Of a stretch of DNA of 6,660 bases, positions 2,237 through 3,180 are shown one piece after another; positions within the stretch are counted from its first letter, which is position 1; each line of letters starts with the position of its first letter. Made by a program: the position numbers and the translations under genes. Under the pieces are notes generated by a model. That model did no database searches, had not been told where the DNA came from, and worked only from the letters and a program-made list of their open reading frames with translations. This DNA is from a virus. Taxonomy: Duplodnaviria; Heunggongvirae; Uroviricota; Caudoviricetes. The stretch lies in the IMG/VR virus record IMGVR_UViG_2681813226_000005; one strand, given 5' to 3'.

Positions 2237-2336
2237 AGGCTATAAACCAACAACTAAACACTGAAAATTTAAATCAGAAATGATTTTTATTAAATCCTTA
2301 ACCGGAGGGATTCCTGCACCCTCAGAACATCAGGAG

Positions 2337-2354
2337 ACCGCCCGAAAGGGCGGT
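2337..2354 (+). promoter_or_regulatory. RNA hairpin (7-bp GC stem, GAAA loop) between an SD-like CAGGAG and the ATG of the 187-aa ORF
   Basis: ACCGCCC-GAAA-GGGCGGT forms a perfect 7-bp stem. CAGGAG (2331-2336) lies 26 nt from the ATG at 2363 in linear sequence, but about 8 nt if the hairpin forms. Confidence 0.4.
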
Positions 2355-2362
2355 AGTGAAAA

Positions 2363-2926
2363 ATGACTGAATTAACCAAAGAATGGCTACAGAACACGAT
2401 TACCGGAATTGAGTCATCACGGGATGAAATACCGTTCGGACTCGATGAAGATCAAAACAACATGCTTACCGCATTAAAAATTGCACTGGCATCACTGGCA
2501 TCAGTATCGGATGAACGGGCAGCCTATGAATTATTTATGGAGAAGCGTTTCGGGGAATCTGTAGATCGCCGCAGAGCAAAAAATGGCGATAGAGAATACA
2601 TGGCATGGGATATGGCGCTTGGCTGGATTATCTGGTGTCACCGCGCCGCCATGCTTCAGGCTGGAAACTTTCGGGAAAATAAGGGTTCGTCAACCAATAA
2701 TTTTCGGATAATCTCGGAAACGTCAACCAACTCTCCGGCAATCCCTGATGAGGTGTTGTCCGCAATCCTGAAGGTCGCCAGGCTTCGTGCAGATTTCGAT
2801 GCTTCTGAAGTGGACAGGCGAGGTATCGGTAGTTGTCTGGATGAGGCCGAGCAAGAACTTATCGTTACCATTAACGAATACGCCAGTCAGATCGCAGTAG
2901 AAGCGACACAGGGGGAGAACCAATGA
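2363..2926 (+). CDS. Hypothetical protein (187 aa), no recognised family
   Basis: Long ORF on the same strand as all neighbours. It follows a 125-bp AT-rich intergenic region. Its stop overlaps the start of a downstream micro-ORF (ATGA at 2923-2926). Confidence 0.65.
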   Translation: MTELTKEWLQNTITGIESSRDEIPFGLDEDQNNMLTALKIALASLASVSDERAAYELFMEKRFGESVDRRRAKNGDREYMAWDMALGWIIWCHRAAMLQAGNFRENKGSSTNNFRIISETSTNSPAIPDEVLSAILKVARLRADFDASEVDRRGIGSCLDEAEQELIVTINEYASQIAVEATQGENQ

Positions 2927-3000
2927 GCCGGCCAGATGCATTTGCAGGCGTTGCTATAGCTATTGCTTTTCTAGTATATGTTATTTGTCGGTGGGGGTAA
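2923..3000 (+). CDS. Candidate small hydrophobic peptide (25 aa, MSRPDAFAGVAIAIAFLVYVICRWG)
   Basis: ATG preceded by GGGGGAGA (2911-2918). One predicted transmembrane-like helix. Coupled to the upstream gene by an ATGA overlap. It is below the ORF-track length cut-off and was found by eye. Confidence 0.3.
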   Translation: MSRPDAFAGVAIAIAFLVYVICRWG

Positions 3001-3035
3001 AAACGTTCGCCGGGATTCACACCAAGGGAGGGAAT

Positions 3036-3140
3036 ATGTCGGATGATATTTCACTGGTAATGGAAGGCGCTCTGGCTGTTATTGCTGTTGTGGGTGTTTA
3101 CTGCCTGGTTGTGTTTTTGATGGAGCGCCTGGGGAACTGA
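3036..3140 (+). CDS. Candidate small membrane peptide (34 aa, MSDDISLVMEGALAVIAVVGVYCLVVFLMERLGN)
   Basis: Very strong RBS AAGGGAGGG (3024-3032) just upstream of the ATG. Single hydrophobic helix with a charged C-terminus. Found by eye. Confidence 0.4.
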   Translation: MSDDISLVMEGALAVIAVVGVYCLVVFLMERLGN

Positions 3141-3150
3141 ATTCATTCCG

Positions 3151-3166
3151 TATGGGAATTCCCATA
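3151..3166. repeat. Perfect 16-bp palindrome TATGGGAATTCCCATA
   Basis: Exact dyad symmetry read directly from the sequence. It lies between the 34-aa micro-ORF and the predicted hok promoter, and no T-run follows it. Confidence 0.6.
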
Positions 3167-3180
3167 TCGGGCAAAACGGT

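Follow-up and report, generated by a model that had tools for sequence, protein, structure and literature searches.

A widespread 27-residue phage micro-gene family and two further exchangeable cargo units beside hok in an Escherichia coli O157:H7 lambdoid prophage

The stretch of DNA analysed here (the window; 6,660 nucleotides (nt), IMG/VR record IMGVR_UViG_2681813226_000005, Caudoviricetes) represents the early-right region of a lambdoid prophage of Escherichia coli O157:H7. In a 931-bp interval of the window (2240-3170), three co-oriented open reading frames (ORFs) coding for products of 187, 25 and 34 amino acids (aa) directly precede a hok/mok/sok locus (Table 1). The original prediction, made from the sequence alone, regarded the three ORFs as one module next to a bona fide hok locus, carried as prophage cargo and possibly directed against the membrane. 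All three ORFs, both Shine-Dalgarno sites and the ATGA overlap are located where it placed them, and the adjoining locus is a genuine hok according to both the Pfam and Rfam profiles. The interval does not, however, form a single module. The 187-aa gene, the 25-aa micro-gene and a cassette with the 34-aa gene are three independently exchangeable units of prophage cargo, and the main outcome of the analysis is that the 25-aa ORF belongs to a widespread, conserved 27-aa family of phage micro-genes that has gone essentially unannotated.

Many E. coli O157:H7 genomes contain a chromosomal prophage in which the 931-bp interval recurs with 100% identity, and the interval is present over its whole length, at an identity of at least 99%, in 344 of 5426 complete E. 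coli genomes. The RefSeq annotation places, all co-oriented, a cro/cI-type regulator gene, a YdaT-family gene, genes for a DnaT-like O protein and the replication protein P, a DUF1627 gene, several small hypothetical genes, the 187-aa gene, the 34-aa gene, hokD, a 92-aa gene, DUF968, RusA and Q genes and a tRNA Ile-Arg-Arg cluster. This order of cro, replication genes, cargo, hok, nin-type genes and Q identifies the interval as accessory cargo of the rightward early operon, situated between the replication genes and Q, in agreement with the cargo status originally proposed.

Table 1. Positions of the genes and sequence features in and around the 931-bp interval of the window.
Feature	Position	Strand	Description
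Intergenic leader of the 187-aa gene	2237..2362	+	Sequence; fold -24.1 kcal/mol, z = -2.4
7-bp stem with GAAA loop (GACCGCCC GAAA GGGCGGT)	2336-2354	+	8 nt 5' of the 187-aa start codon
187-aa gene	2363..2926	+	Predicted modular helical protein, Ead/Ea22/YfdT/'DUF551-protein' mosaic family, without the DUF551 C-terminal domain
Shine-Dalgarno GGGGGAG of the 25-aa ORF	2911..2917	+	Inside the last codons of the 187-aa gene, 5 nt before ATG
25-aa micro-gene (MSRPDAFAGVAIAIAFLVYVICRWG)	2923..3000	+	Single-helix family MxWPEAF..G.A.A....Y.ICRWG; ATGA overlap
Insertion of ~173 bp with the 34-aa gene	3006..3178	+	Between the micro-gene stop (TAAAAACG) and the hok promoter (CAAAACGGTTTGC); AAAACG-flanked
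Shine-Dalgarno AAGGGAGGG of the 34-aa gene	3024..3032	+	GGAGG 4 nt ahead of ATG
34-aa gene (MSDDISLVMEGALAVIAVVGVYCLVVFLMERLGN)	3036..3140	+	WP_001278460.1, annotated by the Prokaryotic Genome Annotation Pipeline (PGAP); predicted single-pass inner-membrane protein
Perfect 16-nt palindrome TATGGGAATTCCCATA	3151..3166	.	3' end of the insertion; central EcoRI site; no U-tract on either strand
hok/mok/sok locus	3181..3635	+	Pfam HOK_GEF E = 1.2e-23; RefSeq annotation hokD
Inferred hok promoter (TTGCTG, TAGAAT)	3181-3186, 3203-3208	+	Placed by its position ahead of the Rfam start
Leader and sok target	3215-3389	+	Rfam RF01794, 114.9 bits
mok	3327-3539	+	Part of the hok/mok/sok locus
hok	3384-3539	+	Pfam HOK_GEF E = 1.2e-23
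Terminator	3608-3625	+	Within the hok/mok/sok locus

The 25-aa ORF is an allele, two residues shorter, of a conserved 27-aa micro-protein (MxWPEAF…Y-x-ICRWG). The 'WPEAF…CRWG' family, as defined in this analysis, comprises micro-genes whose start overlaps the stop of an Ead/EaA/DUF551-type gene; in the window the ATG (2923-2925) overlaps the TGA of the 187-aa gene (2924-2926). Most copies of the window's allele class encode 27 aa (MNWPEAFAITGVAMAIAFLVYVICRWG). A second, DNA-divergent class (MTWPEAFTTVGIAMAVALVVYSICRWG) surfaced in an exhaustive HMMER search with a fused query, which beyond this class returned close relatives only, and at least five DNA-divergent classes can be distinguished in all. 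Further classes were found in the Shiga toxin (Stx) 2 phage Min27, immediately ahead of mokW, and in the rV5-like Vequintavirinae Av-05 and TH18, which are lytic; in all three phages the micro-gene start again overlaps an EaA/Ead-type gene at its stop. Without exception, intact copies begin with an ATGA overlap (GTGA once), which is kept behind four unrelated upstream C-termini, namely …PEPPQEV[NR]Q, …ISVEDILR, …NIEQEVNR and, in the window, …TQGENQ, and a G-rich Shine-Dalgarno sequence lies 5-11 nt ahead of the overlap behind every upstream gene-end type. Nearly all copies stop right after RWG, ahead of more than 10 unrelated downstream sequences; those following the second class, whose contexts were taken from at least 120 IMG/VR loci among the matches listed, comprise the promoter of hok, various terminator hairpins and ParDE-type genes. 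In vB_EcoM_TH18 and Av-05 (L263 and L264, 1501-1581), the unannotated 27-aa product is MTWPEAFTTVGVVMAVAFAVYSVCRWG and the EaA-type gene in ATGA overlap with it ends in …GWNACRAAMLKKKGMNQ.

Divergence between the classes shows that it is the peptide that is retained. In the micro-gene's own frame the proportions of differing synonymous (pS) and nonsynonymous (pN) sites are 0.68-0.80 and 0.19-0.24, with pN/pS of ~0.9 and >1.5 in the other two frames, and length changes are mostly in frame. The most conserved residues of the protein alignment lie at both ends (A6, G9, A13, Y19, C22, R23 and W24). The window allele keeps all seven along with the ATGA overlap, departing from the family in W3, replaced by R as also recurs elsewhere, and in the two-residue deletion; it fits the family in its length (23-28 aa), its single hydrophobic helix, the R-W close to its C-terminus and its stop-overlapping start. 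Family matches were found in up to 2267 of the 5426 complete E. coli genomes, the match covering the micro-gene itself in 30 of an even-step sample of 40 such records, as well as in 94 phage records, Stx phages and lytic Vequintavirinae among them. At the stringency of the pattern used, a scan of the GTDB species representatives recovered it from E. coli, Shigella flexneri and a single, probably mis-binned, metagenome-assembled genome only, and no counterpart was found in the Qin, Rac or CPS-53 prophages of E. coli K-12. The micro-gene is left uncalled in five inspected phage records and by PGAP in the RefSeq genome; GenBank holds a few 27-aa entries, and the exact 25-aa sequence was not found in a collection of 15 billion proteins. 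The micro-gene is thus a real gene under clear purifying selection, widespread and almost never annotated.

The distributions of the three units are nested and their borders sharp, which argues against one module. The pair of micro-ORFs occurs in 674 genomes, compared with 344 for the whole 931 bp, and mostly behind full-length DUF551 genes: upstream of the pair in 126 copies, drawn from IMG/VR and complete genomes and representing 32 haplotypes, ~96 have full-length DUF551-type ends, 24 the C-terminus of the 187-aa type and three an end of the …VEDVLR type. The 27-aa family is in turn far wider than the pair, usually occurring without the 34-aa ORF and often without hok, which lies near the second micro-gene class in 65 of 117 copies among the matches listed. 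A first breakpoint falls in the last few codons of the upstream gene, with DUF551-type prophage matches beginning at 2919-2920, a second exactly at the micro-gene stop and a third at the end of the 34-aa cassette. An obligatory partnership of the micro-gene with DUF551 was rejected, since a family member follows only ~9 of 109 randomly sampled WMPLPEPP gene ends. Also rejected was a 'Rosetta-stone' fusion, suggested by the clustering of the 27-aa peptide with 121-aa Shigella DUF551 proteins that lack it and found to be an artefact; the cluster concerned (P0159, 90% identity), with a peptide-less 121-aa representative, illustrates a pitfall for micro-protein mining. Some DUF551 genes (IMG/VR contigs L272 and L336) are followed, at or just past their stop, by the start of a 41-aa hydrophobic ORF (MMNKCNALLYAMVIGFGLAAGIRVYIAWESLINLAWSAIRG), possibly a second micro-protein filling the same slot.

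In many relatives the stop of the 27-aa gene runs directly into TAAAAACGGTTTGCGGGAAAAGGAGAGTTAAGTAGAAT, the hok promoter, and the alignment shows an extra segment in the window. The ~173 additional nt between elements that are adjacent elsewhere mark the 34-aa ORF as a small inserted cassette. The palindrome at its 3' end is perfect over 22 nt in related prophages (CGATATGGGAATTCCCATATCG); lacking a U-tract, it is not an obvious terminator and could be a protein-binding site or a relic of cassette insertion. The 34-aa ORF is intact in all 126 copies, save for a two-residue C-terminal truncation in one lineage and an ATG to GTG change of the start in another. Its 13 synonymous and 15 nonsynonymous distinct variants give a crude pN/pS of 0.41, the replacements being conservative. 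Reading-frame conservation, put forward as a check of both micro-ORFs, thus holds in each case, for the smaller one through the purifying selection between classes. HMMER and protein searches recovered no relative of the 34-aa peptide below ~68% identity, and none in the GTDB species representatives. The best 17-residue Kyte-Doolittle windows reach 2.66 in the 25-aa and 2.95 in the 34-aa peptide (3.22 in Hok), so that the hydrophobicity ascribed to both is borne out. Shuffled sequences fold at least as well as the 34-aa initiation region (z = +1.22), the centroid of which is unstructured.

A Sakai paralogue of the 34-aa ORF, XECs145 (MSDDISLAMEGALAVIAVVGVYCLVVFLMDRLGN; 3 of 34 residues differ, 91% identity), was detected by ribosome profiling of uninduced E. 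coli O157:H7 Sakai and predicted to be an inner-membrane protein (PMC5597208, Hücker et al. 2017, PLoS One). In lysogeny broth (LB) it shows 79.1 mRNA and 346.1 footprint reads per kilobase per million mapped reads (RPKM), a ribosomal coverage value of 4.35, compared with a mean of 1.55 for short annotated genes, and a coverage of 0.99; the corresponding values in brain heart infusion (BHI) are 121.3, 150.1 and 1.14 (PMC5597208). That study, which lists XECs145 as a 'novel small gene' and assigns it no function, read it from an upstream rare start as 54 codons, where the window ORF is read as 34 aa, and left the cassette structure and the 25/27-aa neighbour, which is below its 30-aa cut-off, unremarked. 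The translation signal sought for the micro-ORFs is accordingly available for the 34-aa ORF by way of its paralogue, and the 25-aa ORF falls outside the range of that study. By sequence, the 34-aa gene encodes a conserved, probably membrane-inserted peptide.

The 187-aa protein (WP_000137954.1, hypothetical protein in RefSeq) was originally assigned to no recognised family. A word-indexed search, however, returned 4326 homologues, most of them with PF04448 and nearly all E. coli or Shigella prophage proteins named 'DUF551 domain-containing'. Full-coverage homologues are 57-79% identical and extend 80-110 residues further into DUF551, with the C-terminus …WMPLPEPPQEV, whereas the window protein ends in …VEATQGENQ; partial-coverage homologues reach 94%. 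Shared with the homologues in the alignment are the N-terminal module, the YfdT-like block (AAYELFMEKRFGESVDRRRAKNGDREYMAWDMALGWIIW), a linker of low complexity and the helical block (LSAILKVA…INEYASQ). K-12 YfdT has 74% identity to residues 37-97, PHROGs 14306, 660, 60, 3323 and 5117 each match part of the protein, and phage DNA matches cover sub-segments only, inside genes annotated as EaA, Ea22 or DUF551. Profile searches of Pfam (E up to 0.1), NCBIfam, PADLOC and PDB returned no match to the protein itself, and neither the DUF551 (PF04448) nor the Ead_Ea22 (PF13935) signature was found in it in Pfam at that threshold. The AlphaFold2 model, built from an alignment of 37 sequences, is all-helical, with disorder in the linker (99-128), and of low confidence (mean predicted local distance difference test score (pLDDT) 49.8). 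On these sequence comparisons, the 187-aa protein is a member of a recognisable, functionally obscure Ead/Ea22/DUF551/YfdT family and not an orphan. A confident match to a housekeeping phage family had been named as what would count against the original prediction; the match obtained is to a known phage family, but not to a housekeeping one. In the K-12 prophage CPS-53, the gene behind yfdS (DUF551) is yfdT (L261, 11874-12176), whose product is a homologue of the first half of the 187-aa protein, the two modules thus being separate neighbouring genes there and fused, in the opposite order, in most other prophages.

Based on the gene order, the cargo would be transcribed from the early rightward operon, and the Sakai data point to an additional, unmapped promoter of the cassette that may be active in lysogens. 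The 187-aa product would be a soluble, helical, modular protein of the Ead/Ea22/YfdT type, a variant that lost, or never had, the DUF551 end. Ribosomes terminating at its TGA would restart at the overlapping ATG, a coupling suggested by the universal overlap and the presence of a Shine-Dalgarno sequence, and such termination-reinitiation would tie the output of the micro-protein to that of the Ead-type gene. With 17-19 hydrophobic residues between the acidic N-terminal WPEAF and basic C-terminal CRWG motifs, the micro-protein would be expected to form a single inner-membrane helix. The 34-aa protein, encoded on the 173-bp moron-like insertion, would be initiated independently at its own strong, open ribosome-binding site, as the Sakai ribosome profiling supports, would likewise form a single inner-membrane helix and would be translated even in uninduced lysogens. 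Both peptides may act on a membrane partner of host or phage, and the micro-protein may, speculatively, work with the coupled Ead/Ea22-type protein. Membrane insertion, restart coupling and the modulator role of the peptides are what we infer from these features.

It is accordingly considered likely that, on the three independently exchangeable cargo units, the peptides are small, non-lethal membrane modulators and not toxins. Several observations weigh against this view. The window's own allele class of the micro-gene is little constrained (~16 nonsynonymous versus 7 synonymous variants), a common variant of it carries Asp mid-helix and a few of its copies have a premature stop or frameshift. 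The micro-gene is absent from the Sakai ribosome-profiling set owing to the length cut-off, and for the 34-aa peptide the profiling evidence concerns the paralogue rather than the window ORF, with multi-mapping among prophage copies or a spontaneously induced subpopulation as possible sources of inflated XECs145 footprints. Neither a sigma-70 consensus promoter nor a terminator was detected on the plus strand between 2900 and 3200. Hydrophobic micro-peptides can also be toxic even when provided with good ribosome-binding sites. A more specific proposal, and a doubtful one, is that the 'WPEAF…CRWG' peptides constitute a family working with the coupled Ead/Ea22-type proteins, perhaps by tethering or reporting these modulators of lysis and lysogeny at the inner membrane, or alternatively, in loci with a following hok, by tempering Hok, the 34-aa cassette being an add-on to this membrane function.

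The originally suggested toxin/immunity or abortive-infection module, in which the three genes would act together against the membrane, with one peptide a type I-like toxin and the others neutralising or triggering it, appears improbable. The genes are co-oriented and tightly packed in this prophage, a genuine hok/sok locus lies alongside, and both peptides have the small size (up to ~60 aa) and hydrophobicity of type I toxins. The three pieces nevertheless assort independently, and the regulatory hallmarks of such toxins were not recovered: an Rfam search over 2900-3200 (E up to 1) gave no match to an antisense RNA or any other family, an RNA of an uncharacterised kind being still conceivable, and there is no conserved antisense promoter, the sole minus-strand promoter-like site (3001-2973) being at chance level (three found versus 1.9 expected) and not kept in the second allele class. 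Translation does not appear to be held off, the Shine-Dalgarno sites of both micro-ORFs being strong and the 34-aa initiation region open, and growing cells translate the 34-aa paralogue efficiently, in both respects unlike type I toxins. Neither micro-peptide matches Hok/Gef (PF01848) in Pfam (E up to 0.1), and no credible family was found for either in Pfam, NCBIfam, PHROGs or PADLOC. A search of PADLOC-DB 2.0 gave no family for the 187-aa or 25-aa products and only a chance-level Cmr5 match to the 34-aa product (E = 0.027), and a literature search by peptide sequence and accession found only the XECs145 supplement entry. The micro-gene is present, moreover, in lytic rV5-like phages, in which abortive infection protecting a lysogen makes little sense. 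With no antisense RNA, hidden ribosome-binding site or defence-family match found, the toxin/immunity reading is unsupported.

It is equally unlikely that the micro-gene serves the hok/sok locus as an accessory, alone or together with the 34-aa protein, for instance as a membrane partner that tempers Hok or as a translated shield of the hok promoter. The placement of this promoter ahead of the Rfam start also draws on the hok sequence of plasmid R1, which we take to carry corresponding hexamers. The micro-ORF pair has hok behind it in 104 of 112 copies, the hok promoter begins 8 nt past the micro-gene stop in 55 of 117 second-class copies among the matches listed, and the micro-gene of the Stx2 phage Min27 adjoins mokW in the same manner. 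Against this, 52 of those 117 second-class copies among the matches listed have no hok within 650 nt and end instead at terminator hairpins or beside ParDE-type genes, rV5-like phages carry the micro-gene with no adjacent hok in their annotation, and neither peptide is found near the K-12 hokD. The constant partner of the micro-gene is the upstream stop codon, not hok.

If the 25-aa ORF were nonfunctional, its sequence serving solely to link recombining segments at a mosaic joint or to form a translated spacer, this would account for its position exactly between two mosaic breakpoints, for the weak constraint in the window allele class and for the few disrupted copies. Such a reading is very improbable in view of the near-saturated synonymous sites between classes, with the peptide kept in this frame only. 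Lambdoid, Stx and lytic phages alike retain the length and the motifs at the two ends, and a DNA linker would keep nucleotides and not amino acids. That the two micro-ORFs are halves of a single ~74-aa two-helix gene, separated through a frameshift of 1 nt within the G run (2992-2997) or read as one through programmed -1 slippage on TGG GGG TAA, is hardly credible: 70-74-aa database proteins do fuse both sequences (P0125, P0126, P0128 and P0129), a -1 slip on GGG, or likewise one extra G, yields exactly the fused sequence and, of the five substitutions found in the spacer of 36 nt, three are silent when read in the downstream frame, but the separate-frame G5 form (TGG GGG TAA) is the norm in the 126 copies, the fusions arise from different indels (G run, T run and others), each on 1-2 contigs, lineages with TGT GGG TAA, TGA GGG TAA or TGG GAG TAA lose the slippery run, one copy has a 1-nt spacer deletion, and other micro-gene alleles end in RWG-stop without any 34-aa ORF downstream. 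A split gene or programmed -1 frameshift was therefore rejected, with no conserved slippery site or fused product in the 126 copies. Public chimeras of the micro-ORFs of 33-74 aa (P0125, P0126, P0128, P0129 and P0150) reflect 1-nt homopolymer indels (G5, T5-6) and are most likely assembly errors or sporadic mutations.

Outside the three units, the leader of the 187-aa gene is ~93% conserved 3' of a homologous 103-aa gene in phages mEp460_4F5 and Rac-SA53, where the GAAA-loop stem is kept with wobble changes. A 28-aa ORF in this region (2280-2366, with an ATGA overlap to the next start) was discarded, its start codon being GTG and ACG in two relatives and thus not conserved. The window is identical to NZ_AP018488 up to ~3571, beyond which a few scattered mismatches occur and the register is lost from 5342, at the rusA/Q junction; the RusA of the window ends in …NIRFEWGNKRSA* and its Q-type ORF starts at 5395, so its rusA-end/Q allele seems to differ from that of the NZ_AP018488 strain. 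Sub-threshold Rfam matches to isrK and isrJ (22-27 bits, below the gathering score) lie at 5988-6072 and 3548-3629. Both stretches contain terminators, one being the hok 3' end and the other a stem-loop and T-run that lie between Q and the tRNA Ile-Arg-Arg cluster, close behind Q, probably the short late-promoter leader transcript.

The micro-gene is a clean case of conserved micro-protein 'dark matter', being carried by about one in three complete E. coli genomes as well as by Stx-converting and lytic rV5-like phages, and almost never called by annotation pipelines. Its fixed start/stop overlap with Ead/Ea22-type genes provides a concrete hypothesis for a protein family some members of which influence lysogeny and the induction of Shiga-toxin phages, while the 34-aa cassette adds a candidate lysogen-expressed membrane peptide specific to pathogenic E. 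coli prophages. For hydrophobic micro-ORFs beside hok, a toxin should not be the default reading.

Among known systems, the 187-aa protein resembles Ea22 of phage lambda and its Stx-phage variants, the Ead_Ea22 (PF13935)/DUF551 (PF04448) mosaic proteins and YfdT and YfdS of K-12 CPS-53, sharing its N-terminal, central and helical modules with thousands of DUF551 prophage proteins. In Ea22 proteins, a variable N-terminus and a coiled-coil region are combined in mosaic fashion with C-terminal domains that can be swapped, DUF551 among them, and Ea22 favours lysogeny (PMC10834534). YfdS (DUF551) or YfdT is required along with YfdQR for multicopy suppression of replication over-initiation (PMC4776307). 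The 187-aa protein, like Ea22, is mosaic, being put together from a variable N-terminus, helical modules in the middle and an exchangeable end. It differs, however, in having neither the DUF551 nor the Ea22 C-terminal domain, and its gene is located in the rightward operon past the replication genes rather than in the exo-xis region.

The 34-aa cassette can be compared to the phage morons, Hendrix-type extra genes inserted between conserved neighbours. Like these, it is inserted between two elements that are directly adjacent in related phages. It may be expressed in the lysogen, judging from the Sakai paralogue, for which multi-mapping or spontaneous induction may contribute. It is only 173 bp long, with neither a sigma-70 promoter nor an intrinsic terminator detected, so that the moron description applies in part only.

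Type I toxins such as Hok/Gef, Ldr, Ibs, TisB and ZorO are matched by the two peptides in size, hydrophobicity and location beside hok, whereas no Hok/Gef match, antisense RNA or sequestered ribosome-binding site was found for the peptides, and the 34-aa paralogue is translated in healthy cells. The bacterial membrane proteins of less than 50 aa which modulate larger membrane proteins, including AcrZ, MgtS, KdpF and CydX, offer another comparison. As in that group, both peptides appear as single hydrophobic helices of 25-34 aa with short charged ends, having ordinary ribosome-binding sites, and no antisense control was found for either. There is no sequence relationship, the only match being one to KdpF at chance level (E = 0.024, below the cut-off). 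In distinction from AcrZ, MgtS, KdpF and CydX, both peptides are phage-borne, and one of them would be translationally coupled to a soluble phage protein.

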